A model generated the notes under the pieces. The model worked only from the letters and a program-made list of their open reading frames with translations. It was not told where the DNA came from and did not search any database. From IMG/VR virus record IMGVR_UViG_3300046816_000434: a stretch of DNA of 64,000 nt, one strand, 5' to 3'. This document shows, in pieces, positions 13,049 through 47,800 of the stretch (positions are counted from its first letter, which is position 1; the number at the start of each line of letters is the position of its first letter). The DNA comes from a virus. Both the position numbers and the translations under genes were made by a program.

Positions 13049-13111
13049 AAAAAAACCGCCACCGCGTTGGGGTGCATTGGACGGAATCGTCCTTCCCGGT
13101 GCGATGGCGGT
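13049..13111 (-). terminator. Intrinsic terminator with competing alternative pairings
   Basis: ACCGCCAUCGC (13111-13101) pairs with GCGGUGGCGGU (13065-13055), followed by a U run; inner GGACG/CGUCC hairpin. Confidence 0.55.
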
Positions 13112-15372: not shown

Positions 15373-15411
15373 TGCTTCGTGCGACGAACGACTTAAAACA
15401 AGAAGGTATCC

Positions 15412-15744: not shown

Positions 15745-15926
15745 CCGTGCAAAAAACTGCCTGAGTGAGAATCCCTTTATCTGCGTAGCATTTAGCCTGG
15801 GGCGATTTCGATTGTTAGCACGGAACGGTTGACCGCCCGCACGGTTAGTGACAGGATTGTGCTTTCTAGAAGTACTGCCCCGCCGGTACGCGGCCGGAAC
15901 TGCTCTTTTTGGTCTCGGCGGTGGTC

Positions 15927-16331
15927 ATGAGTACCGGCTGTGGGCCGCTCGATGAGCGCACCACCGCATCTCAGAGCGCGATTGCCCTCCGTGTGCCCCG
16001 CCTTAAATCCCGCTTAACCGCCATCCTCAACGCCTTACCGAACCAGGCCCGCTACACCTCCGCCAAGAATGCCGAACGCCTGGTGCGTCGCGGCCTCGCC
16101 ACGCTCACACACGCGGGCATCACCCTTCTTCCGGTCGAGCAGATCCGCCGCCTGGACGCGCTGCAAGCGCTGAGCCAGGCGGATGACCGGATGATCCAGG
16201 AGCGGGGCGGAGTGCTGTGGTGGAACGGTTGCGACCATCATCCGGCTGCGGCTCACCGTCCCGGTGAGAACGTAAATCTGCCCCGCACGGATCGCGCCAA
16301 AGCATATTTTGCCTGCCTGGAGGAGCGCTGA
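15927..16331 (+). CDS. Hypothetical protein
   Basis: ORF abutting the head-spike gene; start uncertain. Confidence 0.5.
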   Translation: MSTGCGPLDERTTASQSAIALRVPRLKSRLTAILNALPNQARYTSAKNAERLVRRGLATLTHAGITLLPVEQIRRLDALQALSQADDRMIQERGGVLWWNGCDHHPAAAHRPGENVNLPRTDRAKAYFACLEER

Positions 16332-21749: not shown

Positions 21750-22000
21750 TGACGGAACGCGAAGTAGATATTTCAGAAATCCGCACAAGCCTGATCGAAG
21801 TCCTGACGGGCGGCAACCATCTGGCTTCCGTTCTGATAAACAGATTGGGCGCCGGGCCAGAACTACTTCCTCCTTATCAGACTGACCTCGATTCCGCCAG
21901 GCTCATCGTGAAAGACCCTGAAACGCTTGATGTCTGGATTGCATGGAGAGCCATCATGCGAATGCGGGACCGGCTCATGGGAATTGGGGCATACGAATGA
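21746..22000 (+). CDS. Hypothetical protein
   Basis: 84-aa coupled ORF. Confidence 0.6.
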   Translation: MMTEREVDISEIRTSLIEVLTGGNHLASVLINRLGAGPELLPPYQTDLDSARLIVKDPETLDVWIAWRAIMRMRDRLMGIGAYE

Positions 22001-22016
22001 ACGAGGTTCCCGCCGC

Positions 22017-27658: not shown

Positions 27659-29776
27659 GTGGCGAACAACCAGAGTTTTATCGTCAAGCTCACAGAGCCT
27701 CGCCTGAACGCGGTGCTCGACACGGTGGTTCCGGTGCTTGGCCCCGCCGGTCCGCCCGGCCCTCCCGGTCCCACCGGCCCGACCGGCCCTGTCGGTCCGC
27801 CTGGCCCCGTCACTCCGTGGACGCAGAACGAAGATGCGGCGGGCTGGAACCTGTCCAATGTCGGCCAGCTTACCGTGCAGGGCAGCGCTACTGCGGGCAA
27901 TATGGTCATCAACCAGCCCGCCGGCACGGGGTCTGTGCTTCATCTGGAGTCAGCGCTCTCCGACCGTTGGACCGTCGCGAAAGACGCCATCGCCGAAACC
28001 GGATCAAACGCGGGGTCTAATTTCTTTATCTCCCGGTACAGCGACAGCGGTGTGCTTCTTGGCACCCCACTGACTATCGCCCGTTCCACCGGGGTGGTGA
28101 ACTTTGCGCAGACACCGACCATCGCTGGTCTGCCGATCATCAGTGTTTCGCAGACGCCGTGGTTGAGCGATATCGACGGGGCTGGCTTTGCGCTTAAGAA
28201 TGCCGGCGCCGTGGCGGTTGGTAACAGCCTGGCTACTCTGCCTTCTCCCGTCGCGTCGGCGGATTATATTGTTGCCGGGGGGGTCGCCACCGGCAGTCAC
28301 ATAGGTATTCTGGCCGCATGTTGCAATGCTTCCACGGTGGGGGGCGGAGGGGTTGGCCTCCTGGCGTTTACCAATTATGCAATTGGTGGTGCGGAGAAGC
28401 GGATTGCACAGATCTATGCGGTCATGAACGGGGCGATCAACTCAGGCGACCTGGGCTTTTATACATCTAATTTGGGTACGTTTACGCAGAAGATGGCTAT
28501 TACCGCCACGGGCCGGGTGGGCATCAATACCGCTGCGCCGGGATACACGCTGGATGTGCAGGGCGGTGACTGTAATATTACTGGCACCTACCGGGTCAAC
28601 GGCGTGCCGATCTCGACGGGTGGCGCAGCGCAGACACCGTGGACGAGCGATATCGACGGCGCGGGGTTCCGGCTGATCAATACGGGCAACGTCGGCATCG
28701 GGACGGCGAGTCCGCAGGCGCTGTTGCATCTTGCTCCTGGAGTTAGCGGCGAAGCTTTACGGTTAGCTTGTACGGCGGGGGGCGTGGGAGACGGACCAGC
28801 TATCGGGTTTTATTTTGCCGCCAATAATTATGCGGCTCGCATCTCATCTTATGGAATTAACGTTAACGCAGGCGATTTGGTGTTCAGTACTGCTAACGGT
28901 AGTGCGCCTGTTGAGCGCATGCGCATTAATTACCTCGGTAACGTCGGCATCGGGACGACGGGTCCGGGTAACGTCCTTACCGTAGCGGGAGCGGCTTCGG
29001 CTACTCCTCAGCTACGGTTGGGCACCACTAGTAGTCCAACATATTATTGGGATATCGGTAGAGAGAACCTGACCACCGGAGATTTTGTCTTTAATAATGC
29101 GAATGGAGGAGGTGCAAGCGAGAGGATGCGGATTAGCGTGGGAGGCAACGTCGGCATCGGAAACTCCTCGCCTGCATACCCGCTTCACGTCCTTAACGCA
29201 ACGGCTTCTATTGGGGCTTCTGCTGGGTCAATAGTGGGACTCGCTCAATTCCAGTTCACTGACCCGAATGCGGACCAACTTAGATTCTATGGAAACCGAA
29301 CACTAGCAAATGGAGACTGGTCTGGATGTCAGTGGGTGATTCAGCGCATCGTAGACAGCACAGCAATGGCGTATATCACCCTTGGAAGCAACGTCGGTAT
29401 TGGCAAATCCTCTGCCGCATATACCCTCGATGTCGGTGGCGACGTGAATTCTTCGACCGTGTATCGGGTGCAGGGTTTGCCGTGCGCTCGTGTGATTGCT
29501 TATCTGGATCAAACTGGCGCTCGTGCTCTGAATACCGTTTACCAGAACACCCAGCTCTCCGCGCTATTCGTAGCAGTGACGTTGACCATCAACGCAGGGC
29601 AATTCGCGCAGTTATTGACCGATCTTGGCAACCCGCCGGTTAATGTGACTTGCGCGCAGACTAACGCAAGCGGGTCCACGGTTAACCAGACTTGCAACGG
29701 ATGGGTCATGCCTAACCAGTATTACAAGATCAATGCGCCAAGCGCGACGTTAATCAAATGGTTTGAATGGCAATAA
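27659..29776 (+). CDS. Tail fibre protein
   Basis: Collagen-like GPxGPx run, three TPWxxD(I/E)DxAGxxLxNxG repeats and several ERMRI..GNVGIG repeats. Confidence 0.85.
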   Translation: MANNQSFIVKLTEPRLNAVLDTVVPVLGPAGPPGPPGPTGPTGPVGPPGPVTPWTQNEDAAGWNLSNVGQLTVQGSATAGNMVINQPAGTGSVLHLESALSDRWTVAKDAIAETGSNAGSNFFISRYSDSGVLLGTPLTIARSTGVVNFAQTPTIAGLPIISVSQTPWLSDIDGAGFALKNAGAVAVGNSLATLPSPVASADYIVAGGVATGSHIGILAACCNASTVGGGGVGLLAFTNYAIGGAEKRIAQIYAVMNGAINSGDLGFYTSNLGTFTQKMAITATGRVGINTAAPGYTLDVQGGDCNITGTYRVNGVPISTGGAAQTPWTSDIDGAGFRLINTGNVGIGTASPQALLHLAPGVSGEALRLACTAGGVGDGPAIGFYFAANNYAARISSYGINVNAGDLVFSTANGSAPVERMRINYLGNVGIGTTGPGNVLTVAGAASATPQLRLGTTSSPTYYWDIGRENLTTGDFVFNNANGGGASERMRISVGGNVGIGNSSPAYPLHVLNATASIGASAGSIVGLAQFQFTDPNADQLRFYGNRTLANGDWSGCQWVIQRIVDSTAMAYITLGSNVGIGKSSAAYTLDVGGDVNSSTVYRVQGLPCARVIAYLDQTGARALNTVYQNTQLSALFVAVTLTINAGQFAQLLTDLGNPPVNVTCAQTNASGSTVNQTCNGWVMPNQYYKINAPSATLIKWFEWQ

Positions 29777-31854: not shown

Positions 31855-32784
31855 ATGATCCCCACTAAACTGCAGGTATTCCAGACCGCGCAGTTTCATC
31901 TGGGCGATGAGCAGGGCCAGATCTTCAACTACCAGCTTTTGGAGCAGCCTTTCCAGCTTGCCAACCGGGAGCTGGCGCGGGTGCTGGCGAATCTCGCCAT
32001 CCCGCGCGTGCAGACAGAGCGCTTCTACGACCTGCCGCCCAACACCAGCGTGCTCGACCCGGCGACCGCCGGCATCACCGATTTCAAAGAACCGGAACGC
32101 CTGGAAGAGCGCTCCGTGCAGGCCAGCGTGCCGGTCTCTAACGTGGTCACGGGACCTGGTTACGTCACCGTTACTACTTCCGCGCCGCATCCCTTTCAAA
32201 CCGGCGACCTGGCGGTGCTGTGGGGCATTGCCGGGATGAACGGGATCAACGGCAGCTTCGCGGTCACGGTGGTCGACAACCTCAACTTCAAGGCGAACGG
32301 TGTGACTGCAACCGGCCTCTATACGTCAGGCGGAAACGCGAGCAAGGGCAGCGAAGGCTTCCGGCCCCTGACTTCACGCGACCATATCGAGGATCTCAGC
32401 CTGACCAAGGCGAGCACGCTGGGCGAGTACTGCTGGCGCGAGGGGCGCTTCTGGTTTATTCCCAACGCGGGCGTGCGCGAGCTGCGCATCATGTATATCT
32501 CTAGCGCCGGCATCGTCACTAAGCTCAACGACACCACCGGCTACGATGATTCGCTCGACTACCTGGCGCTGCGCACGGCGGCATATGCGGCCGGTTCGCG
32601 CGGTGCCCCGACGCGCGCCCAGGCGCTCAACCTTTTGGCGCTGGGACCCAACCTGCAGGCGGACGGATCGGGCGGCGTGCTGCATGACCTGGTGGTCGCG
32701 GCCGTGCGCGCTCTGCAGGCGACTCCGACCCGCCGGCCTCCCTTCCGGCAGCGCATCAATAGCGACGTTACTTACTACAGCTAA
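31855..32784 (+). CDS. Head-tail adaptor-like protein with inserted FCCH-like beta domain
   Basis: VTVTTSAPHPFQTGDLAVLWGIAGMNGING.F.VTVVD...YTSGG insertion within a helical adaptor-like frame. Confidence 0.6.
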   Translation: MIPTKLQVFQTAQFHLGDEQGQIFNYQLLEQPFQLANRELARVLANLAIPRVQTERFYDLPPNTSVLDPATAGITDFKEPERLEERSVQASVPVSNVVTGPGYVTVTTSAPHPFQTGDLAVLWGIAGMNGINGSFAVTVVDNLNFKANGVTATGLYTSGGNASKGSEGFRPLTSRDHIEDLSLTKASTLGEYCWREGRFWFIPNAGVRELRIMYISSAGIVTKLNDTTGYDDSLDYLALRTAAYAAGSRGAPTRAQALNLLALGPNLQADGSGGVLHDLVVAAVRALQATPTRRPPFRQRINSDVTYYS

Positions 32785-34952
32785 TGTCTCTTCTGACCGA
32801 TTGGAAAAACCGGGAGCTGGGCAGCTTTGGCGGCGCCTGGCTGAACCGCGACCGCAGCATGATCACTCCGCAGGGGGCGATCCTGTCGCAGAACGTGGAG
32901 TACCAGACGGGCAGCGTGGGCACGCGCCACGGCTTCCAGGAGATCACCGACTTCACGACCAACTTCTTTCAGACGCTGGAGATGTATAGCTGGCTGGCCC
33001 CTTTCAGCGCGATCAATGCGGCTTATAGCGACAACGCGCTGGTGGTGATTTATGTGAATGGGGACACCATCCCGCATGTGACGGTGCAAAACCTCCACGT
33101 CACGCTCGCGAACGGCGTCATGGGCAGCTTTACCCTGGCGCGGCCAACGGGCTTCACCTTTCCTGTGCCGTGGGTGGGCGGCGGCTCTACCGCGCTCTCC
33201 GTGGGCATGAACCTGTTTATCACGGTCTTCGATCAGAATCAGGGCGGTGTCTGCCCTGCGACCGTAGTGCGTATGTTTGAGGACCCGGCGAATCCCGGCT
33301 CTCCCCTGATTGCCGGCGTAGGCGGCAGCAGCGCTCCTGGCGGCGATCCGGACCAGAATGCGGCTTTTCCCGGACCCAGCACTTATGCCCCGCCGGTCAG
33401 CCTGGTTGCGGGCAGTTTCACCACGCCCGGCGTGCACCGTTTCGGTTATCTGATCGAATATCAGACCGGCTTCACCACCCGCGTCTCTCCCGACTCCAAT
33501 ACGACCATCATCCCCACGGTGACGACCTTTGCGCCGATGGTAGCCACGGTTACAGCCGGCAACAAGGTTCGGTTTGCGTTCGCGGCGAACTGGGCGAGCC
33601 TGGAGCTGGGCGGCATCACCGCCATCTCCATGGTGGCGACGACGACCACCAACCTGAACCAGTATTACGTGGTTCCCGGCTCGCGCACGCTGAACGACGG
33701 CAAGCTGGCGGTGACTATCGATGTCGATATCTCGGACGGCGACCTGAGCAGCCGGGGCACGGATGCGTCCCCTTATCTGTATTGGCTGACGATGACGGCG
33801 GATAATGCCTCTTCCGCGACCTCTCAGCCTTTTGCGGTCCGTCATCTGGCGTTGTGGGCGGACCGCATGACTTACCTGGCGACCGTGCCTGACAACCGGG
33901 GCAACCTGATCGACGCGCTCTATGTCAGCGAGCGCAACAACTATCAGGCGATCACGGCGGACCAGCATGTGCTGCAGCTTCCCGGCCAGAAGATGATGGT
34001 CACCATGTTCCGCATGGGCAGCGTGAACTACATCGTGGGGCCGCATGAAATCTGGGGCATGAGCGACAACGGCGACGTCCCGGTGACCTGGGCGGCACCC
34101 GGCCTGGTGGACGGCCGGCACGGCACGCTGGCGATTCACGGCGCGGAGGTGGCGCCCAGTGGCGACCGCACCTGGATTGCGGATCAGGCGGGGCTCTTCC
34201 TGTTTACCGGCGGACCCATGCTGGATTTGCCTCTCAGCTACTACCAGACCCCCGACTGGGGCCGGATCAACTGGCGGGCGGGATATGCGGTGCGCATCAA
34301 GGACGATTCGGCCAGCCGGCGGGTCTGTATTACCGTCCCCCTGGACGGCGCGCTGCAGGCGACCCATGTCATGACCTGGGACTACACCGATGGCCTGACT
34401 CCCGATACGGTGCGCTACTCGCTCAATTTCATCGCTGTATCCGGCGGCACGTTGCCGCAGCAGCCGATTGGTGCCATCGAGCTGGTCCCTAACGATCTGG
34501 CGAATCAGGGCGGCAACACCGGGCGGGTGGAGTTGTGGCTGGGTCTATGGTTTGCGAACGCCGACCTGGGCACCGCGCACGTTCTGCGTCATATGTCGGA
34601 GCTGGACGCCACTCCTTTCCGCGACCTGAATTACGGCATCGACAGCAAGTGGAGCGGGCCTCCCCTTCCCGGCCGCGATATGGGGCAGAGCATCATTCAG
34701 CACCACCATGGTTTCCATGCGCGGCTGCGCGGGATCGGCACGGTGAATCCGGTCATCTGGGACATCGACCAGAAGAACAGTTTTCCCTGCCGCTCCGTCA
34801 CCCTGAACGAGGGTCCCGACCAGGATGAGCTGGTGCTGGCGGACCTGATCAACGAGCTGGCGTACGTCACGCTGGAAACCAAGCTGGTCGACAGCTACTT
34901 CCGGCTCGCCTTTTTGCGTTGGTATTACACTCCCTACATCATGCAGCGCTAG
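32784..34952 (+). CDS. Tail nozzle/stabilisation protein (T7 gp12/P22 gp10-like)
   Basis: 722 aa, beta-rich, N-terminal FGGAWLN...SQNVEYQTGSVGTRHG pattern, position after the adaptor. Confidence 0.65.
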   Translation: MSLLTDWKNRELGSFGGAWLNRDRSMITPQGAILSQNVEYQTGSVGTRHGFQEITDFTTNFFQTLEMYSWLAPFSAINAAYSDNALVVIYVNGDTIPHVTVQNLHVTLANGVMGSFTLARPTGFTFPVPWVGGGSTALSVGMNLFITVFDQNQGGVCPATVVRMFEDPANPGSPLIAGVGGSSAPGGDPDQNAAFPGPSTYAPPVSLVAGSFTTPGVHRFGYLIEYQTGFTTRVSPDSNTTIIPTVTTFAPMVATVTAGNKVRFAFAANWASLELGGITAISMVATTTTNLNQYYVVPGSRTLNDGKLAVTIDVDISDGDLSSRGTDASPYLYWLTMTADNASSATSQPFAVRHLALWADRMTYLATVPDNRGNLIDALYVSERNNYQAITADQHVLQLPGQKMMVTMFRMGSVNYIVGPHEIWGMSDNGDVPVTWAAPGLVDGRHGTLAIHGAEVAPSGDRTWIADQAGLFLFTGGPMLDLPLSYYQTPDWGRINWRAGYAVRIKDDSASRRVCITVPLDGALQATHVMTWDYTDGLTPDTVRYSLNFIAVSGGTLPQQPIGAIELVPNDLANQGGNTGRVELWLGLWFANADLGTAHVLRHMSELDATPFRDLNYGIDSKWSGPPLPGRDMGQSIIQHHHGFHARLRGIGTVNPVIWDIDQKNSFPCRSVTLNEGPDQDELVLADLINELAYVTLETKLVDSYFRLAFLRWYYTPYIMQR

Positions 34953-34959: not shown

Positions 34960-35490
34960 ATGCCCCGGCAACAATCGGAGGTTCTCGGTTCGGTAGCCAG
35001 CCTGCGCGGCGCGGCGAGCATTCTGCGCTCCGCGATCAAGGAGAGGCAACCCGACGCGCTGGACAAGATTGCGAATGCGGCGGCGACCGCCTTTGAAGGC
35101 ACGCAGACCGCAATTGAGAATTTGGAGGCGCGTCTCAGGCGGCTGGGCGAGCCTAACGTGTTCGACCCGGTCCACCGCTCTCCGCTATTGGTTTCGGGCG
35201 ACCGGATTCGCGACGGCGTCAACATCCAGGGACCGTTGGGCACGGTGCGCGGGCAGAGCCTGGACCTGACCTTTCAGAACCAGATTGGCACGGTGGCGAG
35301 CTACGACCATGTGGCGGGCAAATACCTGCAGCTCATGTTGAGCGGTGCTGGCGTGGTCTTCGACACGCACACCACCGCGCCCGCAAACAGCGCCGCTCCG
35401 GGCATTGACGGCGAGATTCGCATGGACAGCGGCTACATCTACATACATTCCGGCGGTTCCTGGCGCAGGGCCGCGCTGACCACCTTCTGA
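34960..35490 (+). CDS. Tail-associated protein
   Basis: C-terminal TAPANSAAPGIDGEIRMDSGYIYI...WRRAALTTF motif seen in phage fibre proteins. Confidence 0.65.
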   Translation: MPRQQSEVLGSVASLRGAASILRSAIKERQPDALDKIANAAATAFEGTQTAIENLEARLRRLGEPNVFDPVHRSPLLVSGDRIRDGVNIQGPLGTVRGQSLDLTFQNQIGTVASYDHVAGKYLQLMLSGAGVVFDTHTTAPANSAAPGIDGEIRMDSGYIYIHSGGSWRRAALTTF

Positions 35491-35503: not shown

Positions 35504-37546
35504 ATGACTTACCAACAAATGCTGGATGCGGGTTACACCTTTAACTCACTCGGGCAACCTATCCCTCCCGGCTCCTCATCCTATGCTGCCTCTCCGCAGA
35601 ACCCATACAACGTAGTCCCTCAAGCGCCGACCGGGCCATACGCAGTCACTCCCTCCTCTGGGAATCCGTTCCCGACGATTGGTTCCACGATTCCAACAGA
35701 CACCGCCTTCATCAATACCGGCACTCCTCCGCCCGCAACGAATACTCCGCCAGCCGGCACAACTCCACCTGGAACAACCGCTCCGCCTGGAACGACTACC
35801 CCACCTGGAACAACCACTCCGCCCGCAGCGAGGGCTCAGGCCCAAACAACCGTACCGGATGTAACGCCCGGTCCTAATACCGGCGGCGTCTATACCAGCA
35901 GCTATCCCGGTGTAGGCAATCCGACCGGCATGCCGTATGGCACTGGCGCCATAGGCGGTTTCCCAACCACGGCGCAGCTCGATGCGAATGGAAATCCCGT
36001 CAAGGACGCGAACGGGAATACGGTCATGGTTCCCTCGTGGAGCTATAACCCCTCCAACAATGTGGGCGACATGCTCGCAAACGCGCAGGGTTATGCGTAC
36101 ACGCAGGGTGGCGAGCTAATTACTAATTACGGCTCCCTGATGGCGCAGCAGCAACAGCGTGCAGGGCAGCTTGGCGCGACCGGCGACAGCATGTATGCGT
36201 TCCTGCAGGCGCATCCCGGTTACACACCGGAACAAGCCCAGGCCATCATGAACCAGGGCGGTCTCGATGCTCTGCAATGGAACCAGGGTATGGCGGACCA
36301 GAATTTCCTGACCGGCGGCGAGCAAACCGCCATGCAGGGGGACCCGTACGCGGCGTATCGGGGGTATGCGCAGACCGGCACCGTTCCGCAGTATGACGCG
36401 CAGGGCAATCCGATTCTAGACGCGCAGGGCAATCAGGTGATGCAGAGCCAGGCGGATTACCTGAACCAGCTCTCGCGCCAGTATCAGGGCACGGTGCAGG
36501 GGACTTACGATACCGGTGCCACCGCGATCAATAGCGGGTTGGGTGCGATGGGCGCCGGGCTCGATAAAGCTATCGATCCCACACAGCTTGGTCTCAGCGG
36601 TCAGTTCACGCAGAACTACAACTGGACGCCCGAAGATTCGCAGAACATTATCAACGCGGCCGGGCGCAACGTGGGCATGCAGACCGCCGCGATCCAGGAC
36701 CAGCTCCAGCGCCAGGCTAATGCGGCAGGCGCTAACGCGCCGCTCGCTCTCTCCGCTGCGCTCGCGCGGCAGCGTCAGACCGGCGACGTGGCGAGCGCCG
36801 ATGCCATGACGCAGGCTGCGATCCAGGCGAAGCAGATGGGGCTGAGCGTACAGCAGGTATTGGAGCAGATGCGGTTAGGCACCGCGCAAGATGTCTCTAA
36901 TCGCCGTATGCAGGCAGCGACCACGCTGGGGCAGAGCGATATCGCCGCGCAGGAATACCTGACCACCGGACGGGCGAACGCCAATCTGCAGACCGGCCTG
37001 GAACAGATCAACGAGCAAAATACCATCGCGGGAAAGGAAGCGGATCTCACTCAATCGGGCGAGATGGCGGCGCAGCAGCGCGCGCAGGCGATGGCGCAGA
37101 ACCGGCAGCAGATCTCGCAGGCGAACCAGGCCGCGCAGTTCTCAAGGGGCAGCTATGTTGATCAGGCCGAGAGTCAGCGCGCCACCCAGGAAGCGACCGC
37201 CACGCGCGCCGATCAGACCCAGGCACGGCAGGACGTGCGAAACGAAGAGCAGACTGCGTACAACGAATCTAACAGCGGCATGGCGGGCCAGCTCCAGGCG
37301 TTCAGCGGAGTGACCGGCGCGGGGCAGGCGAGCGACGCTAACGCGATTCGCGCCGCGCAGCTTCCAACCTCACTCGACAAGGTGATTGGGGGCGCGGCCA
37401 CGGCACTCAGCGCGAAGGGCGACATCTTCAATAAACCCACAAAAGCGCGGATTGGCGAGAGCGGCCCGGAGATCGTAATCAAACTCAAGCATATGGGAGG
37501 CAGTCCTATGTCGTATCGACGGAAACACGAGGCGGCGTATGCCTAA
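35504..37546 (+). CDS. Internal virion/DNA ejection protein, putative
   Basis: Q/A/G/T-rich, 680 aa; C-terminal KPTKARIGESGPEIVIKL motif. Confidence 0.7.
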   Translation: MTYQQMLDAGYTFNSLGQPIPPGSSSYAASPQNPYNVVPQAPTGPYAVTPSSGNPFPTIGSTIPTDTAFINTGTPPPATNTPPAGTTPPGTTAPPGTTTPPGTTTPPAARAQAQTTVPDVTPGPNTGGVYTSSYPGVGNPTGMPYGTGAIGGFPTTAQLDANGNPVKDANGNTVMVPSWSYNPSNNVGDMLANAQGYAYTQGGELITNYGSLMAQQQQRAGQLGATGDSMYAFLQAHPGYTPEQAQAIMNQGGLDALQWNQGMADQNFLTGGEQTAMQGDPYAAYRGYAQTGTVPQYDAQGNPILDAQGNQVMQSQADYLNQLSRQYQGTVQGTYDTGATAINSGLGAMGAGLDKAIDPTQLGLSGQFTQNYNWTPEDSQNIINAAGRNVGMQTAAIQDQLQRQANAAGANAPLALSAALARQRQTGDVASADAMTQAAIQAKQMGLSVQQVLEQMRLGTAQDVSNRRMQAATTLGQSDIAAQEYLTTGRANANLQTGLEQINEQNTIAGKEADLTQSGEMAAQQRAQAMAQNRQQISQANQAAQFSRGSYVDQAESQRATQEATATRADQTQARQDVRNEEQTAYNESNSGMAGQLQAFSGVTGAGQASDANAIRAAQLPTSLDKVIGGAATALSAKGDIFNKPTKARIGESGPEIVIKLKHMGGSPMSYRRKHEAAYA

Positions 37547-38681
37547 AAGACAAGCTGGCTTGCCGGATCTCAAGACCCGTTTCGGCTGGTTGCCCGGCGC
37601 GAACAAGGTCGACCCGCAGATTTACACGCAGCTTGACCCGACTGCCAAGAAGCCGCTTCCCGACTTTCCCGCGCAGGACGTACAGGCGCCGCAATCGGAT
37701 AGCCCCATCCTCTTCAAGCCACCTAAGCCCCAGCCTCCGCCAGGCGGAGGTGGCGGAGGTACTTTCCTTCCTCCCCCCGTCAAACTTCCACCGCCACCTC
37801 CGCCACCACCCCCTCCCCCCCCACCGCCTCCTCCTCCAGAACGAATCGGTGTAGGGCAGACCCACACTCTTCCGCCGCGCACGCCTCCGATTGGCGTGGG
37901 GCAGGAACACAAGCCTCCTCCGCCTACCGTGCCTCCTGGGTCAGGGACAGAATGGGTTCCTCCGGTGGTTACGCCTCCAATTGGTTCGGGACAGACCCGG
38001 AATCCTCCTCCGCGTACGCCAATCGGGGGCGTAGGACAGACCCGGAATCTTCCTCCGCGTACGCCTCCAATTGGTTCAGGCCAGACCTGGAATCCTGTGC
38101 CGCCTACCCCGCCCCTGCCTCCTTTCCCAACGGTGAATATGGGGCCTGAACCACCGCAACCTCCTCCTCCGCCGATTATTCCGGTTCCGCCAACTCCAAC
38201 TTCAATTGACCCGAACTTGAATACAACTACTGTCACTTATCCGCCTGAAGGAACTGGAGGTGGCGAAGGCGAAGGCGGAGGCGGCGGTGGTGAAGGTGAT
38301 CGTGGCGGCGGCGGGGTTGTGGATGGCGGTGGTGGTGGCTTTATCACGTCTCCTGGCAACGATGGCGATGGCGATGGCGATGGTGGCGGTGAGCCCCCAG
38401 GCCCCAGCGGCGGTCGCAGCGGCACTGGTGTCGACGAAACGATTGATTGGGGTGAAGACGGGGGCAAGGATTTCGTTGGCGGTGTTGATTTTGGCAGACC
38501 GTACGACTACGCTCGTGGCGGCATCATCATGAAGCCGCGTATCGGGCGCGTAGGCGAGCGCGGGCCGGAAGCCATCATGAAATTGGGGCCGCGCATGCCA
38601 GGCGGCTGGGAAGTCCCCATGCGTCCCGGCAAGCTGCCGTACCAGTCAATGCGCTACACGCGGAGATCAGAGGTTGTATAA
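37539..38681 (+). CDS. Pro/Gly-rich protein with GGxxxxPxxxxxGExGPE motif
   Basis: Poly-Pro run, five IG(V/S)GQ repeats, ARGGIIMKPRIGRVGERGPEAIMKL. Confidence 0.7.
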   Translation: MPKRQAGLPDLKTRFGWLPGANKVDPQIYTQLDPTAKKPLPDFPAQDVQAPQSDSPILFKPPKPQPPPGGGGGGTFLPPPVKLPPPPPPPPPPPPPPPPPERIGVGQTHTLPPRTPPIGVGQEHKPPPPTVPPGSGTEWVPPVVTPPIGSGQTRNPPPRTPIGGVGQTRNLPPRTPPIGSGQTWNPVPPTPPLPPFPTVNMGPEPPQPPPPPIIPVPPTPTSIDPNLNTTTVTYPPEGTGGGEGEGGGGGGEGDRGGGGVVDGGGGGFITSPGNDGDGDGDGGGEPPGPSGGRSGTGVDETIDWGEDGGKDFVGGVDFGRPYDYARGGIIMKPRIGRVGERGPEAIMKLGPRMPGGWEVPMRPGKLPYQSMRYTRRSEVV

Positions 38682-39117
38682 GCGGCGCTGGACCGCGCCT
38701 ACGATTGGCCGCAGCAGGCGGGGGCCTCCCTGGCCCATAGGCCGGCTCAAGCGGCCGGTGCCGAACGTGCGCGGCGGCGGTCCGGTTCCCAACGGCCTGA
38801 CCGATTCACCCGGCGGAGATCTGGGCGGTCAGCCGGTTCCGTTCACCGACCCGAACGCGAACTACGCGAACTACGGCATGCCCAATCCATCGCTGCCGCA
38901 GCAGTTGCGGCAATTGCCGCCAGAGGAGTTGCAGCAGTTAGAACGGTTGCCGCCACAGCAGCTACAGCAGTTTCTGCAACAGATGCCGCCGCAGCTACCA
39001 GAGCAGATGGCGTGCGGCGGCGTAGTGACCAAACCGACTGTAGCAGTGGTGGGCGAGCGTGAGCCGGAAGCGGTAGTCAAGCTGCGTCCGCGTATGAGTT
39101 ATCAGAGAAAGGAGTAA
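38674..39117 (+). CDS. Gln/Pro-rich protein with GGxxxxPTxxxxGExxPE motif
   Basis: ACGGVVTKPTVAVVGEREPEAVVKL; TTG start uncertain. Confidence 0.65.
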   Translation: MYKRRWTAPTIGRSRRGPPWPIGRLKRPVPNVRGGGPVPNGLTDSPGGDLGGQPVPFTDPNANYANYGMPNPSLPQQLRQLPPEELQQLERLPPQQLQQFLQQMPPQLPEQMACGGVVTKPTVAVVGEREPEAVVKLRPRMSYQRKE

Positions 39118-39121
39118 GTCT

Positions 39122-39901
39122 ATGCCGTTTGATTGGCTAAGTGCGTTGAAGGGTGTGGGGGCTGCAGGCCGTGGTTATGAGAATGCAAAGTATGGACGGC
39201 CGCAGCAGGGAGGTGGCGCACCTGGTGCGGCGCCTGGTGGAGGCGGAGGCGGAGGTGGGCTTTTGAGCGCGCTGGCGGCGCGGCGGAAACCTTTCGGCCA
39301 ACCCACCCGCCCGTTCACGCCGCCACCGGCTCAGGCACAGGGAGCGCCATCACCGATGGCTGAGCCACCAGTTCCGCAGCCAGGTGCTCCGCCAGCGGGT
39401 ATGCCGCTCGATCTGATGCGTCCGGTTCCGGGCGGTAGTCCGATGCAGGGTCCCCCGCCGCCTGCCATGCCTCCGCCTGGAATGGGCGGTCCTCCTCCCG
39501 GCGGTATGCCTCCTATGCCTCCGCCCAGCGGCAGCGGTCCGCCTCCTGGAGCGGGCGGTCCTTCTCCCATGCCCCCACCCGATGGCGGTCCTGGACCTGG
39601 AGGCCCTACGCCGCCGACCAATCCTTATCCGGGGCTGCAAGGCGACAATGACGACGACGACAATCCCGATCAGCGTATGGCGAACGGCGGCGTGGTCAAT
39701 AAGCCGACGACTGCATTGCTGGGCGAGGACGGGCCGGAAATGGTGGTCCCGCTCAACCGGCGACCCGGCAACAGGGTCAGCCTCGCGAACCTGCCAGGAC
39801 AGCGTCCGGGTCTTCCGCCTGCCATGCCCGGTGGCGGGGTTCCGCCGCCGCGTGCGCCGATGCTCAGCCCCGCCATGCGCTACCGTTCCCGCTTTCGTTA
39901 A
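39122..39901 (+). CDS. Pro/Gly-rich protein with GGxxxxPTxxxxGExGPE motif
   Basis: ANGGVVNKPTTALLGEDGPEMVVPL; AAGGAG SD. Confidence 0.7.
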   Translation: MPFDWLSALKGVGAAGRGYENAKYGRPQQGGGAPGAAPGGGGGGGGLLSALAARRKPFGQPTRPFTPPPAQAQGAPSPMAEPPVPQPGAPPAGMPLDLMRPVPGGSPMQGPPPPAMPPPGMGGPPPGGMPPMPPPSGSGPPPGAGGPSPMPPPDGGPGPGGPTPPTNPYPGLQGDNDDDDNPDQRMANGGVVNKPTTALLGEDGPEMVVPLNRRPGNRVSLANLPGQRPGLPPAMPGGGVPPPRAPMLSPAMRYRSRFR

Positions 39902-39919: not shown

Positions 39920-41818
39920 ATGGGCGGCTATTACGTGCCTAACATCCAGCGGCCTGGTTTCGGCTATCAGCGCCGCAGCGAGGATGACGAAGACGAATTC
40001 GATGGCTCTGGCTTTGGTGATCCCGGCGACTGGGGCGGCAGTGCAGGCACGCCTGCGTCTGACGGGCCGGATGCATCGGGCGCGACCGGCGGCTATTCTC
40101 CGTTGGCTGCAAATTCGCCCGCGCAAGGCATGCAGAGCATGTCCGCTCCTGCTCCCGCCGTCCAGAATCCGGATTGGCTGAGCGGGATGGATTGGACGGG
40201 CTCTTCGCAACAAGACAACCCGCCGATACCGTACGCATCTCCCTCGCGCGGCGGGGCGGACACGGCGCCTACCGAAACGGAGGCGAATCTGTCCCGGCCG
40301 GCTGGACCGGAAGGCCGTTATCTTCCCGAGCCTCCCGAGCCGCAGGACGCTGAGACAACTCCCACCAGCACTGGCATACCCGGTATAGGCCAGCCGCCCA
40401 TGGGGAGGCCTTCCAAGGTTCCTCCGCCGGTCTCTTCCCACGCCGAACAGGAAAAGCTCAAACAGATGATCAAGGCGGGACCGAAGCGCAGCGTCCTGGG
40501 CACGATTCTGGCGGGAGCGGCGGGATTTGGCGCGGGCTACGTGAATGCGGCAAGCCGCACGCGGAACCCGGTTCCGGTTCCGCAACAGGCGATGCGCAAC
40601 CTGACCTGGCGTGCGCCCGGCGGCGGAGCGTGGGACACCAAGCTTGCGCGGCAGAAGGAGCTGGCGGAGCAGGAGCAAGGCGAGGAGAAGCGCGCACTGA
40701 GCGCACAGCAGATCCAGGCGCAGGCGGAGGAACGTCAGGCGCAGGCGAAGGAGATTGCGCAGCGCGGCGACTATCTGAGTCAGATCGCGAAGACGGGAGC
40801 TAAGGCGGAGGAGGACCGGCAGAAACAGCAGCAGTTGCAGCGCATCACTCAGATGGGTGGAAGAACGCCGCAGATCCGCTACTACCCGGCGGACAATCCT
40901 CCCGCCGAGGTGGCAAATTCCAGTGACTGGTATGTGAAGCCCGATCCTTACGATCCGCATTCTATGATTGCGGTGCGTCCTGATCCAGGCCAGAAGATCG
41001 ATGACGAGACGGCCGACCTTCTGGGCATTGCGCGTGGTTCTACTGTCTCTCCGTCTACTCTTAATGCGGCAACGCGAGCGAAGATATCGGCGGTGAACGC
41101 GGCTCAAGCCTCTTCCGACAGGGAACTGGAGAGGTTGCGCAGGGAAGCGGCCGACAAGAACACGGTCAGGCATCAGACCGAAATGGAAGGCATAGCCGCC
41201 GGGGGTGCAGCGGATCGGACGGAGGCGAGGGAGCAGCGGCGTACGGATGCGCAGAACAAGGCGCTGCAGGGCGCGGAAGACTCAAAAAAGAACTTACTGA
41301 TTGGGGCAGAGAGATGGGGTGACAACGAGCGCAATAAGGTGCGAACGTCGTTGGGTTACATTTCTGACGCTGAAGAGGCGCGCATCAAGAAGGCAGTGCT
41401 CGCGCAAAAGCAGGCTGCATATAACAGCTACGCAGCAGCCAGCCGGCAATATGGCGGCGCAGCGTATGATGTGAAGCTCGATGAAAACGGCGATCCGATC
41501 CCGATCACGGAAGGGTATCTGAAGGGGCAGAAGCCGACTTACCTTCCTGGCGAAACCGCACCGACACCGACGGCACCAGCCGCTACTCCCGCTCGCGCGC
41601 CCACGGGCGGCGGCAGAGGCGGACGCGGAAACGTGCCGCCTCCAGTGAACACGAGCGCGCAGACGCAGGTTCCGCCTGCTGAAAAGGCCCCTCCCACAGC
41701 GCCGCAGGGCGAAGGGGTGACCGTCCCCATTCCCAACAATCCAAGCAAAAGTATGCACTTTGCCAGCAGGGAAGCGGCCGTGAAGTTCTTTAAAGACCGT
41801 GGCTACGATCTCAAATAA
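39920..41818 (+). CDS. Internal virion/DNA ejection protein, putative
   Basis: AAGGAGG SD; Gly-rich amphipathic segment LGTILAGAAGFGAGYV followed by long coiled coils. Confidence 0.7.
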   Translation: MGGYYVPNIQRPGFGYQRRSEDDEDEFDGSGFGDPGDWGGSAGTPASDGPDASGATGGYSPLAANSPAQGMQSMSAPAPAVQNPDWLSGMDWTGSSQQDNPPIPYASPSRGGADTAPTETEANLSRPAGPEGRYLPEPPEPQDAETTPTSTGIPGIGQPPMGRPSKVPPPVSSHAEQEKLKQMIKAGPKRSVLGTILAGAAGFGAGYVNAASRTRNPVPVPQQAMRNLTWRAPGGGAWDTKLARQKELAEQEQGEEKRALSAQQIQAQAEERQAQAKEIAQRGDYLSQIAKTGAKAEEDRQKQQQLQRITQMGGRTPQIRYYPADNPPAEVANSSDWYVKPDPYDPHSMIAVRPDPGQKIDDETADLLGIARGSTVSPSTLNAATRAKISAVNAAQASSDRELERLRREAADKNTVRHQTEMEGIAAGGAADRTEAREQRRTDAQNKALQGAEDSKKNLLIGAERWGDNERNKVRTSLGYISDAEEARIKKAVLAQKQAAYNSYAAASRQYGGAAYDVKLDENGDPIPITEGYLKGQKPTYLPGETAPTPTAPAATPARAPTGGGRGGRGNVPPPVNTSAQTQVPPAEKAPPTAPQGEGVTVPIPNNPSKSMHFASREAAVKFFKDRGYDLK

Positions 41819-44800
41819 TGCCCGACGTTCTTGAACCTGAAGTAGCCGATCCTACTACCGACCCCGATACAATCGACTGGGAGCAGGAAGCCAAACAGGC
41901 TGGTGCGGCTGTTATCCCGACACCCCAACCCCCTAAGCCGCCGGTTGATGATTGGGAGGCGGAAGCGAAGAGTGCCGGGATAAGCGTCACCCCGACGCCC
42001 AAGCGTCAGGCGCAGCCTGCGCAACCCGCGCGCGCTATCGACTGGGAAGCGGAAGCCAAACAGGCGGGAGCGACCATCCAGGATAATGTTTACGCCGGTC
42101 CCCAGATTGGCTTTGAGATCCCTCCGCACCAGTTAGATCTGGGCCGCAGGATACCGGCGGGCCTGGCTCCTCAGGCTCCTGCTACGCCTGCACCCGCTGT
42201 TCCGCCGCCGGTTGCCGTTCCACAACCGACCGTCTACGGCGGGCCGCAGCTTGGTCCGATCACGCCGCCGCCTGCGCCAGCACAAATCACGCCTGTTCCG
42301 CTTGAGCCTGGCCTTCAACGCCCGGCGCCTGCTCCTCAGTTGCCAACGGGTGCCGGCGGTATTGCGCAGGCGGTCAGCAATGTGATGGGCGAGTCGCCGC
42401 GCCTGGATGTGCAGGCAGCTCGCGCCTACGGCCTGCTAACTTCGCCAGGCCAATTCATTGAGCGGCCGGCGAATGACGTGCCAACGGCGGATCACATCGT
42501 GTATGCGATTCGCCAGATGGCGGCGAACCAGGCTTCGCCCGTAGAAGTCGGCAAGATGCTGGCGTTCGGCTTGGGCGGCAAAGGAATCGGTCTCCTGCAG
42601 AAGGGACTCGCTAATTCCGGAATGCTGGCTTCGCTACCTGGCTTGAGCAAGGCGCTTGACGTTGCTTCGCGCGCCGCGATCCCTGGCTATATCGTTGGCA
42701 GCGGTAGCAAGAATGTCTATGAGCAGGCGCAGGCAGCTCAAGCAGCGAAGGAGCGCGGAGATACCGGCGCCGAGGTGGAAGCGCGGACGCAGGAAGTGGT
42801 CAGTGCGTTGATGGCGTTGGCGGGTGCGTATGGCGTCCGCCAGGCCTGGCAGGTCAAGGGCGCGTATCCGCCTTCTCCGACCGCCGCCGAGAAGGCGACA
42901 GCCGAGAAGATAGGCGGCATTGCTACTCCCAAGGTCTCATCCGAAGCCGCAGGCGCGATTGCAGAGCGGCTGCGCCAGCAGGGTGCTCCATTGGCGGCGC
43001 AGGCATGGGAGCAGCTCGACCGTAGCCGTCCGGTTGAGCTGAATATTGGGGGCAGGAAGGCCTACCTCACGGATACCTGGACCGGAGGGCGTCCGGGCGT
43101 GGGGAACATGATCCAGTATGTCTTCGATGAAGACGGCGATGTACTGACGGGCGGTTCGCCGGATGCCGTGAAGGGCTGGCTCGATCAGCAGACCAGCACA
43201 CGGCGAGGCATGCGATCCGGTACTGCTGCTGCCGGTGTTCCGGGCGTTACTTATGAGCCCGCGTTAGAACAGGGCGAGGCACTCACTGGGACCAGGCCGG
43301 CTCCTCCTGGGACTGGCGCGTCCATCCCCCCACGGGTTGGTTCTCAGGTTCCAGGAGAAGGAGTGCCGCCTGGCGAAGGCGGCGGGGCACCTTCCGGTCC
43401 TGACGTTCCCGACGTTCCCGACGTTCCTGGCACATCCGTAGTCCCTCCGTCCGTTGGCGTTCCGTCCATGGACCCGCAGTTGCGTGACCAACTGCATGAG
43501 ATGAGCGCGGAAGACATTGCGCGGTACAACAGTCCAGACATCAACACGATGTTGCGCATGCTGGGCCTTCCCCTGACCGGCAATAAGCTGGACCGTGCCA
43601 CGGCCATCAAGGAAGCAATCGCCAGGCAGCAGGCTGGTGAAGTGGCACCAGCGTCCGTAGGGGCGGAGCCGGAAGGCCCTCCCGAGCCGAAAGCGGAAGT
43701 CACTTCCGGCGGGCCGCAGGCGCCTGAGGAGGATGTCAGTGGTGGCCGCAATGCGGTGACACTCGATCCCGCCAAGATGGACGAGGAGACGTTCGATCAA
43801 TACGTGCGTCTTCGCGAGCTGCTTAAGAACGCCGGCAACCTGGGCTTTGAGAGAATCGGAGATGCGGTCAAAGCCATTCTGACGCACCAGGACTGGGCAA
43901 CCCGCTGGGACGTGGGAGGGGGACCCGATGGCGCGGAGCTAATCCGGCTGGGCAACAAGTTTGGCGGCTGGCAAGAGCAATTGCCTGCGCCTGCCCAGAA
44001 CGCGCTGCCTCCGCCGGTTGGTACAATAGGCCCCTATGGGCGACCCGTCAGATCTGAGGAACCAGAAGGAAAGGTGGGAGAAGCAGCAGCGGCTCCGGAG
44101 GAATCTCGACCGCTGGGCGGGGTTGGTGGAGGGGAAAGCTGGCGACAAACCAGCATCATCATCCCCGGAGCCGACGAAGAGCTTGGAGCCCAATACAGAC
44201 TTGCCGAGTTAAAGGACGTATTCCCCTCCCACCATCCCTTCAGCCTTCAGGCGCAGCCCGAACACCCGTGGGGCAATGAGCGCAATTACAACACGCCGGA
44301 AGGCAGGGCGCGTCTCTATAAGCAGGCGACCAGATTCAAGCACCGCCTGATGGTCACCGACAACGCGGACAACGTCAACGGTCCGTCCGTGGTCGCGCGC
44401 AATCCCGCGAATCCCAACGATCCGAGGCTCTACGTGCTGGGCGGCAACAGCCGCATCATGACCATCCACCGCGTGGCGGCGGACCACCCGGAGGCGTACC
44501 GCGCCTACGTGCAGTACCTCGCGGACCGCGCGCCGTTGTACGGCTACACGCGCGAGCAGGTGCTGGGCATGGAGAACCCGGTTCTGGTGCGCGAGCTGGA
44601 TCAGACCGAGATTCCAAAGTACCGCCAGATCATCAGCGACCTGAACAAGACCGGGACCGCCGCGCTCGATCCGTTTGAGCAGGCGATCAGCGATTCGCAG
44701 CGCGTCAGCCAGGACACGCTCGACCACATCCACTACGCCATCGAGAAGCTGGGGTCGAAGGGCACGCTCGCCAAGGCCCTTGAGGGCGCCCTGGGTCCTG

Positions 44801-47800
44801 AGATCGTGCAGAACCTGGTTAAAGACGGATTGATCACCGAAAGCGGGCGTCCTGCTTATCTGGACCCACGGTCGCAGAAGGTGACCGCAGAGGGCAAGGC
44901 GCGCATCTTGCGTCTCATGCTGGGGCGCTTCTTTGACTCTGTGCCGCAGATGTTGAGCACCAACCCGATCTACCAGGCTCGCCTGGAACGCATGGCGGCG
45001 CCACTGGTGCGCCTGGAGGGCAGGCCCGACTGGGATGTCCTGAACGCGCCGATCCGCGAGGCGCTGGAAATCCTGTACCAGTCGGAGATCCGGGACATGC
45101 CGGTCCTGGAGGATCTGAACGCACAGGAAGACATGTATGAGGGGAGCAAGTACAGCCCGGAGGGCATTGCCTGGGCGTACGTTCTCCGGAGCAATGGTGC
45201 CGACCGGCTGGGCACCGCAGCCAGGCAGTATCTGGAGATGGAGGCCCCGTCGCGTCCCGGCCAGGACGTGGACATGTTCGCGCCGCCGCCGGTAGACCAG
45301 GCGGAGGCCTTCGCCAAGGCATTCGGTGACCTGAGAACAGGCAAGGGCAAGGGGACCGTAAGCAAGGAGTATCCAAAGCTGGGCGAGCCAGTGGCGCAGC
45401 CCGGAGAGCTGCAATCGCTCAGGCGGCGCGGTCACGGAACGGGAGAGCTGGGGTTTGATCAACCCGCCCGGACCGGGGGAGCAGATAGGCAGGAGTCGTT
45501 CTTTAGCTCAGAGGATGAAGCCGCGTCCCAGGCCCTTGAGGAATCGCGCCAAAAGAAGCTTCTGGGCGAGCGCCTCACTGCGCAGTTTCACTCCGGACAG
45601 GCGGTGCGGCCGGCCGGCCTGAAGCCCGCACAACAGCGTGGCATGTTTGAGGAGGAGGGGCCGGAACAGGGAGGGCTTGACCTTTCTGAAGCGGCGCCCA
45701 CGTCTTCGTATTCGGCCCAGTTCCCTCCATCGCCAGCGCAGAAGGCACCAGAGAAGCGCGGCGCTGCATCCCAGCGCAACATGCGTATCGCGGACCTGGA
45801 ACGCCAGGCGACTCAGATGCGCCTCACGCCTGAGGAGCAGGACGAGCTGACAAACCTGCGGCGGGAGCGGGCGACGCGCATGGCTGAGCGCCGCACCCAG
45901 TTTGAACGGGGACAGGCTCCGCTGTTTGCGGAACAGATCCCGGAGGCTAAGCCAGAGGACTTCATTCGTGCTGATGAAGAAAGGGAGCGGAGCAGGCGGG
46001 AGAGCGACCAGGGCAGCGAGCAAAAGGCGCGCAACTACCGGGAAGCCATTGCCGGGGCCGTGTCGCCGGAACGGCTGGATGAGCTGGACAGAGGGTGGGA
46101 AAGCTTCAAGGGGCCGCATAAACCTGCGTATCACGCGGACTACTGGCTGCAGCACTACCGTGATGTCTTTAAGCGCAACCCGATGGACGTGTACCGTGGA
46201 GGTGAGCCGTGGCCTCTACCTAAGACTGAAGGGGAGGAGCGGGCAAAGCAGGCTGGCCTGACCGAAGAGGAGTACCTGGAGCTGAAGGCTCCGCATGAGG
46301 GCGAGGGAGAGGTACAGGCGCTGCGCCGTGTGCCGCCCGACCAGCTTCCGCCTGTCAGGCGCGGCCTGAACGACGTGCAGGAGATCCTGCATGACCAGGT
46401 GCGGAAGAAGATCAAGGCGGATGCGCCCGATGCGCTTCAGCAACACCGCCTGGTTACGGAGTCGCGCAAGGAAGTCCAGGAGCAGCTCGCTAAGCCTGTG
46501 AGTGGCATTGGCTGGTATGACGCCGATACGCCGCTCGCCAATACCGATCTGACCAAAGCCTTTCCTGAGCTGAAGACGAATCCCGAAAAGCTGGTCCTGC
46601 TCAACGCCATGTCGGCGGTGACCTCTTCCAGCCATGAGGCGGAACGGGAGTCGGAGCAGGCCGCGTACATCTACGAGCAGTACCGCAAGACGGGGCGCAT
46701 CCCGCTTTCCCGTACAAAGGGCACCAAGTGGGTGGGGCAGGGCGCGGCCGTTGGGCTCGATAAGCTGAACCGTCTGTTGCGGCATTTCGGCGGTAAGACT
46801 CCCTTTGCCGGCGAGAAGAAGCTGGCGGATTTCCTCACCACCAAGCAGACTGCAGACAGCATCCGTGCGCTGGGCCGCAAGCTGGGCTATACGGACGGGA
46901 CCATCCGCTCCTGGCTGGAGAAGCGCGACGAGATGCTGGGGGCTGCGGTCCTGGGCGAGAAGATGTCCCGCTATTTCGCGGGCATCATGGGCCTGGACAT
47001 GGACGGGTCGACCGTCGATGTCTGGATGGCGCGCGCGGGTTACCGCCAGCTTGGGCGCCTAGTGAAGGAAGGCGAGCCCAAGGGTCCGGAGGCGCCGCGT
47101 TCGCCGCGCGACCGCCAGCTCTTCATGAAGACGGATGAAACCCTGGCGAAGGAGTTTAGGCTACCTACGCGCGACATCCAGGCGGTACGCTGGTTCTACG
47201 AGAAAGAGCTGTACCGCAGCCTGGGGTTTAACACCGCCGATGGCTGGCGGTCGCACGGTACGCTAAAATACCTGGAAGACAATGGCATTGCAACAGCGTA
47301 CACCCGCAATCGACGTCGCCGAATTGATCTCAGCGCTGCAGAGAATGCAGCTCAAAGCGAAGGCGGAGGGGCGCGACCCGACACTTCGGCAACTCCTGGA
47401 CGAGGCGCACGAGCAACTGCGCAAGGACCAGGCGAAGAGGAAGTAAGCGCCCGGCGTAGACCTACCGGACCGGGCGAGGGGCAGTTCTCGCTTCCCTTCG
47501 ACCAGCCTCACGAGACGGCCATCGAGGACCTGCAGGAAGCGGCTGGCCGTCCGCACATCATCAGCATCGATCCCAATGCTATCCGCCGCCTGACAGACCC
47601 GCCGCGACCGGCTGTTGCAAGTCAGCAGGCGAGCGAGCAGTTCTTTAAGGGGGCCGACTCCTACGTCACCAAGGTGGGCGATGTTCCGGCTGTGTTCATG
47701 AACCAGCCGATGATGGACATTCTGCTGCATGCCAAAGGTACTTGGGCGGTTGACAAGAATGGCTCTCATGTTGGCGGGCTGGCGGTTCCGCCCTCCCAGT

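Follow-up and report, generated by a model that had tools for sequence, protein, structure and literature searches.

The best described counterparts of the proteins treated here are the tape-measure proteins (TMPs) of long-tailed particles and the ejection proteins of short-tailed podophages. The TMP of RcGTA consists of a 113-residue helix, an 83-residue part built from beta strands with loops, and a final 20-residue helix, and its trimer fills the channel at the level of the tube and the distal tail protein; its authors liken it to the needle of phage P22, which plugs the nozzle (Bardy et al. 2020, PMC7296036). The TMP of the F7 pyocin is anchored in the tail tip by its C-terminal helix, residues 579-611 (PMC12874032), and in the models of F7 pyocin, JBD30, T5, 80alpha, diffocin and phiCD508 the TMP is represented by its last 20-35 residues only, a helical trimer in the tail tip (PMC12874032 and PMC11445458 among the sources). 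The ejection proteins of podophages (gp14-gp16 of T7; gp7, gp20 and gp16 of P22; gp26-gp29 of cyanophage A4) are encoded directly after the nozzle, and the needle, in one coupled operon. We analysed a stretch of 64,000 nucleotides of viral DNA (IMG/VR record IMGVR_UViG_3300046816_000434, hereafter the window) in which four consecutive genes, termed P1 to P4, each end in a copy of a module of about 30 residues that recurs near the C-terminus of TMPs. Here a TMP end module is carried by three or four distinct and largely disordered proteins that occupy the ejection slot of a podophage, and relatives have fused versions. This arrangement is new; the literature searched held no description of the motif, of a TMP C-terminal motif or of this arrangement.

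Four module copies in consecutive genes

The preliminary description of the window had reported four consecutive genes with a C-terminal motif, and all four peptides were recovered as quoted, each at the end of a plus-strand open reading frame (ORF; Table 1). The pattern given for them, GGxxxxPTxxxxGExGPE, holds overall, with three deviating copies: P1 has GD for GG, P2 has PR for PT and P3 reads GEREPE. When the six frames of the window were scanned, the string GE.[GE]PE turned up four times, in P1-P4, and nowhere else. Using a motif profile made from 18 copies of the window phage and its relatives (alignment A2), P1-P4 were retrieved with E-values from 2.9e-21 to 2.5e-17, the next ORF of the window reaching 1.2. 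The four-copy motif is not due to chance. Its consensus is [FMY]-A-x-G-G-[IV]-[IV]-x-K-P-T-x-A-x-[IV]-G-E-x-G-P-E-x-[IV]-[IV]-[KP]-L, and the module measures about 30 residues when the upstream hydrophobic-Ala position is counted. The invariant G, P, G-E and P-E and the flanking hydrophobic pairs are present in the P1-P4 copies (alignments A2 and A5). No other type is as conserved or as widespread as that of P4, in which L-N-G/R-R-P-x-x-[KR]-V-S comes after the motif.

The bodies that precede the module had been called low-complexity and unrelated to one another, which composition and filtered BLASTP both bear out. When P1-P4 were compared with each other with the low-complexity filter on, the sole match was the module itself (25-39 residues, E-values 8e-7 to 0.03) and the bodies did not match one another. 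P1, rich in Ala, Gln, Gly and Thr, is the best conserved of the module carriers. In P2, residues 8-60 at the N-terminus are kept in two of the related loci described below (L001 and L003); the same protein has an uninterrupted run of 19 prolines, some five repeats resembling PPRTPPIG-x-GQT, and stretches rich in Gly, Asp and Glu (GGGEGEGGGGGGEGD, GDGDGDGDGGG). Pfam gave no match to P1-P4 at E-values up to 0.1, TMP core domains included, and beyond the 30-residue TMP module the four proteins belong to no PHROG or Pfam family and to no described ejection-protein family.

P1-P4 have a second C-terminal motif in common, M-[SR]-Y-x-[RS]-[RK], which stands close to the stop codon, only a few residues away from it (PMSYRRK, SMRYTRR, RMSYQRK and AMRYRSR). 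What comes after the module amounts to 10-31 mostly Pro, Gly and Arg residues in P1-P3 (10 in P3) and to a 48-residue Pro-rich stretch in P4. Such a tail could have been the general second half of the TMP module; we rejected this, as no enrichment was seen after 323 motif instances in TMPs, where a Tyr-basic tail follows the module in 19% of windows as compared to 16% of random ones. The M-x-Y-x-R-R tail, which stands at chain ends, is specific to this podophage clade.

The junctions between the genes are compact. The start and stop codons of P1/P2 and of P2/P3 overlap by 8 nucleotides each, in the same geometry, and 8-nucleotide overlaps recur in the relatives. The ribosome-binding sites of P3 and P4 sit in the last codons of the preceding gene, so that the C-terminal R-S-E and R-K-E, whose codons contain them, are doubly constrained. 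Each gene lies in the +1 frame relative to the previous one, and a single frameshifted polyprotein was thus considered; it was rejected on account of the start codons with ribosome-binding sites at the junctions, and no slippery site was recognised in the junction sequences. Compared to the related locus L005, all insertions and deletions in P3 and P4 are multiples of three, and the substitutions show an excess at third codon positions; in P4 they fall on codon positions 1, 2 and 3 in numbers of 56, 64 and 108. Because of these frame-preserving changes and this excess, we conclude that P1-P4 are real genes; they are separate cistrons.

Table 1. Position of the module copies, tail motifs and surrounding genes in the window (aa, amino acids).
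Feature	Position	Strand	Remarks
P1	35504-37546	+	680 aa; Pro/Thr-rich N-terminus, Ala/Gln-rich body of about 450 aa, module, tail
Module copy 1, GDIFNKPTKARIGESGPE (P1)	37418-37471 (G...PE core)	+	profile E-value 2.5e-17
P1 tail motif M-S-Y-R-R-K	37508-37525	+	
P2	37539-38681	+	380 aa; 24% Pro, 19% Gly; conserved N-terminus
Module copy 2, GGIIMKPRIGRVGERGPE (P2)	38517-38570 (core)	+	profile E-value 8e-19
P2 tail motif M-R-Y-T-R-R	38649-38666	+	next codons hold the GGAG ribosome-binding site of P3
Ribosome-binding site and start of P3	38655-38681		GGAG, TTG start
P3	38674-39117	+	147 aa; TTG start; rich in Pro, Gln and Leu
Module copy 3, GGVVTKPTVAVVGEREPE (P3)	39016-39069 (core)	+	profile E-value 9e-20
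P3 tail motif M-S-Y-Q-R-K	39094-39111	+	last codons AGA AAG GAG are the Shine-Dalgarno site of P4
Ribosome-binding site and start of P4	39100-39124		AGAAAGGAG, ATG start
P4	39122-39901	+	259 aa; 26% Pro, 20% Gly
Module copy 4, GGVVNKPTTALLGEDGPE (P4)	39686-39739 (core)	+	profile E-value 2.9e-21
P4 tail motif M-R-Y-R-S-R	39875-39892	+	
Terminase	19027-20874		PHROG identity
Portal	21927-24413		PHROG identity (weak)
Fibre	27659-29776		PHROG identity
309-aa structural protein	31855-32784		
Tail nozzle protein	32784-34952	+	722 aa; fold match; just upstream of the array
176-aa protein	34960-35490	+	between nozzle and P1, position of P22 needle gp26
P5	39920-41818	+	632 aa; next in the same operon; no module
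Giant protein	41818-51213	+	3131 aa; last gene of the set; no motif copy
Tyrosine integrase	52775-54133		PHROG 1, E-value 5e-23; downstream of the structural genes

The module in tape-measure proteins and in related loci

Judged by its sequence, the module corresponds to an element that is known though without a name, namely the unit repeated in the distal part of TMPs. The P4 copy matched the TMP family phrog_167 with an E-value of 1.3e-6 at profile positions 1410-1441 of 1555, and the module lies near the C-terminus of PHROG TMP families 167, 1535, 10093, 12798 and 23574; PHROG families labelled endolysin and peptidase also contain it. The NCBIfam family RcGTA_tape (NF058675) was matched at positions of about 128-175 of 220. 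A profile search of the PDB returned the TMP of PyoF5, an F-type pyocin (25vf_5, residues 521-536 of 612, E-value 3e-4) and, weakly, the TMP gp59 of phiCD508 (9g8s_w, 1293-1318 of 1424). By profile position, the module falls in the beta region of the RcGTA TMP, and in the F7 pyocin (520-537), as in PyoF5, it precedes the anchoring helix by some 40 residues.

When the P4 copy served as query, tblastn found 619 out of 50,697 cultured phage records (625 places); with a typical TMP copy it found 814 (824 places). Nearly all of the matches listed are annotated TMPs, from sipho- and myophages whose hosts are Gram-positive or Gram-negative bacteria and from one phage of an archaeon (Halorubrum phage Hardycor1). 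The T4-like cyanophages S-H38 (MW117965) and S-CREM1 (OP535465) carry two copies per genome in proteins not annotated as TMPs, namely a hypothetical protein and an M15 metallopeptidase, and in a related phage a 'late control gene D protein' bears one. From 1.84 billion metagenomic cluster representatives, 13,726 proteins were retrieved by a profile search at E-values up to 1e-3. The best 150 of these contain two copies per chain (n=109), three (25), four (10), five (5) or six (1), a list that favours multi-copy proteins since the scores of their copies are summed; in the median protein the first copy is found at 62% of the length and the last 68 residues from the end. P0034 (five copies) and P0057 (three copies) are natural tandem-module proteins. 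When nine multi-copy proteins were scanned, two showed TMP Pfam domains (PhageMin_Tail in P0027; TMP_3 and Tape_meas_lam_C in P0031), and most others matched TMP PHROGs over the module only. The earlier statement that the motif usually occurs once is therefore right for cultured phages, where records and places are nearly equal in number, and wrong for the best 150 metagenomic proteins; as to its occurrence in 'tape-measure or ejection proteins', the TMP half agrees with the PHROG and tblastn matches, and the ejection-protein half found no support among characterised podophages, P22 being devoid of a copy.

Homologues of P1 numbered 21, all from metagenomes or assemblies and, apart from the 100% match to its own record, 29-87% identical. 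Among the related loci (handles L001 to L009), the module is present in four copies in L005, in L001 (one of them in a 699-residue protein) and in L003/L004, and in three copies in L002. It is better conserved than its carriers: between P4 and its counterpart in L001, identity is 76% over the module and 27% over the body. Copies cluster by their position in the array, with 74% identity within the P4 type against 51% between types, and 64% against 52% for the P1 type. Because copies group by position across relatives, the module paralogues must be old and separately maintained, and recent duplication or gene conversion was rejected on the same observation. The set of carriers is variable. P3 was found only in the window and in L005, the genes downstream of the array differ between relatives, and additional carriers with no counterpart in the window occur in L001 (699 residues, 15270-17369) and in L003 (636 residues, 11162-13066). 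These two additional carriers have a conserved extension of about 60 residues (VRLHPM...RGAIFE...) instead of the M-x-Y-x-R-R tail.

In three more distant relatives, a P1-like body and two to four modules are joined in one polypeptide. The fused protein of L007 (1051 residues, three modules) ends in RRPMSYQRRGEYAAR; its N-terminal part aligns with the P1 body (31% identity over 478 residues, E-value 1e-33) and its internal module copies are not followed by a Tyr-basic tail. That of L008 has 949 residues and four modules. The L009 protein has 720 residues and two modules, the last being of the P4 type, and its N-terminal part likewise aligns with the P1 body. In the light of these fused forms, P1-P4 are best seen as the split form, with one cistron per module, and either form could be the older.

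The locus of a short-tailed phage

The gene just upstream of the array had no match to any sequence family, and PDB sequence searches with its product, the 309-residue structural protein and the portal gave nothing useful. An AlphaFold2 model of the 722-residue upstream protein, based on a 39-sequence alignment, reached a pLDDT of 85.4 and a pTM of 0.84 (a 4-sequence alignment had given a pLDDT of 31 only and was replaced). The best 31 Foldseek matches of this model in the PDB are all podophage tail or portal-tail complexes, led by SU10 (7z4b, E-value 9e-19) and followed by cyanophage A4, HRP29 and others; in four of the 31 the chain is named in the entry title, as T7 nozzle gp12 (7boy), phiM1 nozzle, P22 gp10 (8eap) and Sf6 gp8. 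The modelled fold identifies the phage as a podovirus, short-tailed, and with a nozzle next door P1-P4 take up the place where internal (ejection) proteins are encoded. PHROG identities were obtained for terminase, portal, fibre and integrase (Table 1), and since a tyrosine integrase is present the phage is temperate. P1, the nozzle and the probable capsid protein were used as tblastn queries on the cultured phage records and brought up no cultured relatives, and a search of viral contigs for related loci with the nozzle protein found nothing. Most structural neighbours of the nozzle in the Atlas belong to Acidobacteriota assemblies, a hint as to the host group.

The order of genes parallels that of known podophages: in P22, gp10-gp26-gp14-gp7-gp20-gp16 run parallel to the nozzle, the 176-residue protein, P1-P4, P5 and the giant protein, and T7 likewise has its nozzle followed by the internal core proteins. 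For the 176-residue protein, the role of a small fibre or of a needle-like tail protein is possible. Its last 45 residues match PHROG tail proteins 37350 and 17312 at their C-termini, with the common motif G-x-D-G-E-I-R-x-D-x-x-Y-I-Y-I-x-x-G-G-x-W-R; an Atlas look-up gave only a weak fibre-N-terminus lead. Homologues are kept upstream of P1 in relatives and are longer in L001 (278 residues) and L002 (378 residues). P5 is probably a membrane-inserting ejection protein, as predicted from a glycine-zipper-like hydrophobic stretch at residues 192-210 (VLGTILAGAAGFGAGYVNA), and it has an orthologue in L002. This stretch recalls the Gly-rich C-terminus of P22 gp7, and the N-terminal FGYQRRSE of P5 resembles the tail motif of P1-P4. 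The counterpart of the giant protein in one relative carries the Pfam domain ddrB-ParB. In the 309-residue structural protein, residues 92-162 match the FCCH beta-barrel of UBA6/UBA1 (E-value 2.6e-4 against PDB sequences), and Pfam E1_FCCH is recorded on its homologues in three relatives.

The array resembles the C-terminal regions of TMPs (RcGTA g11, PyoF5 25VF and phiCD508 gp59 9G8S) in having the same module of about 30 residues, which in TMPs lies near the first-out end at the distal gate, and in that the module is repeatable and follows extended or coiled bodies. It differs from them in several respects. A nozzle is present in the window phage; the scan of its structural genes brought up no family of tube, sheath, chaperone or hub proteins, and a TMP core domain was likewise not detected. 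The high Pro content of P2-P4 (17-26%) and their Pro/Gly-rich character argue against a helical ruler, although the Ala/Gln-rich body of P1 could be helical. The anchoring helix of 20-35 residues is absent, with M-x-Y-x-R-R in its place, and the modules are spread over four genes. Having no long-tail genes, TMP core domain or C-terminal anchoring helix, P1-P4 are, by these predicted features, not TMPs.

With podophage ejection proteins the array shares its place directly after the nozzle and needle position in one coupled operon, the membrane-type and giant proteins that follow, and an expected exit before the DNA. Unlike those proteins, P1-P4 match no known ejection-protein family in sequence and have neither a hydrolase nor a membrane segment, and P22 does not have the module. 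Two further systems can be compared. The likeness between the RcGTA TMP and the P22 needle gp26 (PMC7296036), both trimeric rods with a beta region that blocks the tail channel, is an explicit bridge of long-tail TMPs and short-tail plugs; that proposal relies on helix similarity and a 5 A map, does not name the motif and concerns a single protein, not an array. The crAss-like cargo proteins (Pfam crAss_CARG1), kept in tail and capsid, are several extended proteins stored along a short-tailed exit path, as P1-P4 would be, but the only lead is a weak one from a language model, for P1 alone (score 0.83), with no relation in sequence or motif.

A proposed role of the module at the exit channel

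The reading that we prefer, tentatively and at a little less than an even chance, is that P1-P4 are ejection proteins of an uncultured temperate podophage and represent the one-cistron-per-module form of a multi-module TMP-like protein, with the modules at the exit channel. Each protein would consist of an extended, largely low-complexity body, then the beta-forming module of about 30 residues, then the M-x-Y-x-R-R tail. By analogy with the RcGTA TMP, each module would assemble into a small beta oligomer inside the exit channel, so that the C-terminal ends of P1-P4 would lie within the portal-adaptor-nozzle channel or at the inner mouth of it, serving as plug and as the end that leaves first. 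This would allow the Pro/Gly-rich bodies to travel through the channel with no need to unfold, and they may span the envelope before P5, the giant protein and the DNA come through.

Several observations weigh against this proposal. The module is resolved in no solved TMP-bearing particle surveyed, and the structural papers on phiCD508, diffocin, F-type pyocin, RcGTA and JBD30 neither resolve nor mention it. The RcGTA map is at 5 A (PMC7296036), and the module was placed in the beta region of RcGTA by profile positions rather than with the sequence of the RcGTA protein itself. P1-P4 do not have the C-terminal anchoring helix of TMPs; P5 and the 3131-residue protein, which are also expected to be ejected, do not have the module. 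A six-frame scan of the P22 genome with the motif profile found no copy, and the module is thus not a general podophage requirement. Finally, homology of the P2-P4 bodies to the segments between the modules of the fused proteins cannot be shown, because these are of low complexity. A three-copy complex prediction of the P4 module (57 residues, 55-row alignment) scored 0.02, with a partner pLDDT of 37, and speaks neither for self-association nor against it.

An extension of the preferred reading would make the module a universal exit-end element of injected virion proteins. As a small beta plug of several chains it would dock any extended protein within the distal channel of the tail, and long-tail TMPs would share it by common inheritance with podophage ejection proteins of a large, uncultured group. 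We consider that this probably goes too far.

Two other readings appear unlikely to us. The preliminary description took the module for a loading tag, which would bind the portal, the scaffold or the core in procapsid assembly, so that the carriers are encapsidated and later ejected as the members of an expandable cargo cassette. The genes do lie in the ejection-protein slot, the module is kept while the bodies diverge, and each separate gene keeps its own C-terminal M-x-Y-x-R-R tail, as would suit a docking peptide. The carrier set also varies (P3 being restricted to the window and L005, and the extra carriers to L001 and L003), and to that extent the pattern fits an expandable arrangement as proposed; independent tagged cargos are improbable in view of the distant relatives in which a P1-like body is fused to two to four modules, with internal copies inside single polypeptides where one tag would do. 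The main home of the module is moreover the TMP, and because TMPs are built into tails and never into capsids, a capsid-specific partner cannot explain its general conservation. The largest of the presumed cargos, the 3131-residue protein, and P5 have no module at all.

The second reading, which we would place equally low, assigns the module a role after ejection, in which it would nucleate refolding or oligomerisation into a trans-envelope conduit or bind the cell wall, the repeats providing several periplasmic anchoring or assembly points. The position of the module in the part of the TMP that leaves first, which often bears wall-degrading domains, speaks for such a role, as do its carriers among the PHROG endolysin and peptidase families, the M15 peptidase and the 'late control gene D protein' (T4-like cyanophages); Pro-rich rods such as the 19-proline run of P2 would suit a periplasm-spanning part. 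However, the phages that carry the module infect Gram-positive bacteria, Gram-negative bacteria and archaea (Hardycor1), whose envelopes have no common component, and no membrane-spanning stretch occurs in or near the module.

A processing site is a much weaker candidate and in our view very improbable. The module or the basic tail would mark protease cuts of multi-module proteins, and gene boundaries would have replaced the cuts in this clade. Fused and split forms coexist, the gene ends fall shortly after each module, a dibasic R-R or R-K follows the Tyr, and processing near the C-terminus of the TMP has been reported or proposed for T5 and JBD30 (PMC11445458). Yet the Tyr-basic tail is not enriched after the module in TMPs and is missing after the internal copies of L007, family scans identified no protease gene near the array, and the invariant G, P, GE and PE would read more as the signature of a fold than as a cleavage site. 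That P1-P4 are chance open frames in GC-rich repetitive DNA has next to no probability: although the array region is of 63-65% GC with long ORFs on both strands, and gene callers split or missed array genes in L003 and L005, the frame-preserving changes and third-position excess against L005, the position-specific conservation of the module across five loci and the conserved overlaps and ribosome-binding sites all speak for genes.

The storage, order and release of internal proteins in short-tailed phages are known for a few model phages only, and the module links podophage ejection proteins to TMPs through a common element. In TMPs it sits exactly in the region just above the resolved C-terminal helix. 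Module and tail together form a small separable unit of 45-60 residues, which, if the docking reading were true, would offer a handle for loading chosen proteins into phage particles. If the module were indeed a universal exit-end element, TMPs and podophage ejection proteins would be homologous at their business end, and the module would be a portable tag that places chosen proteins first in the ejection queue.

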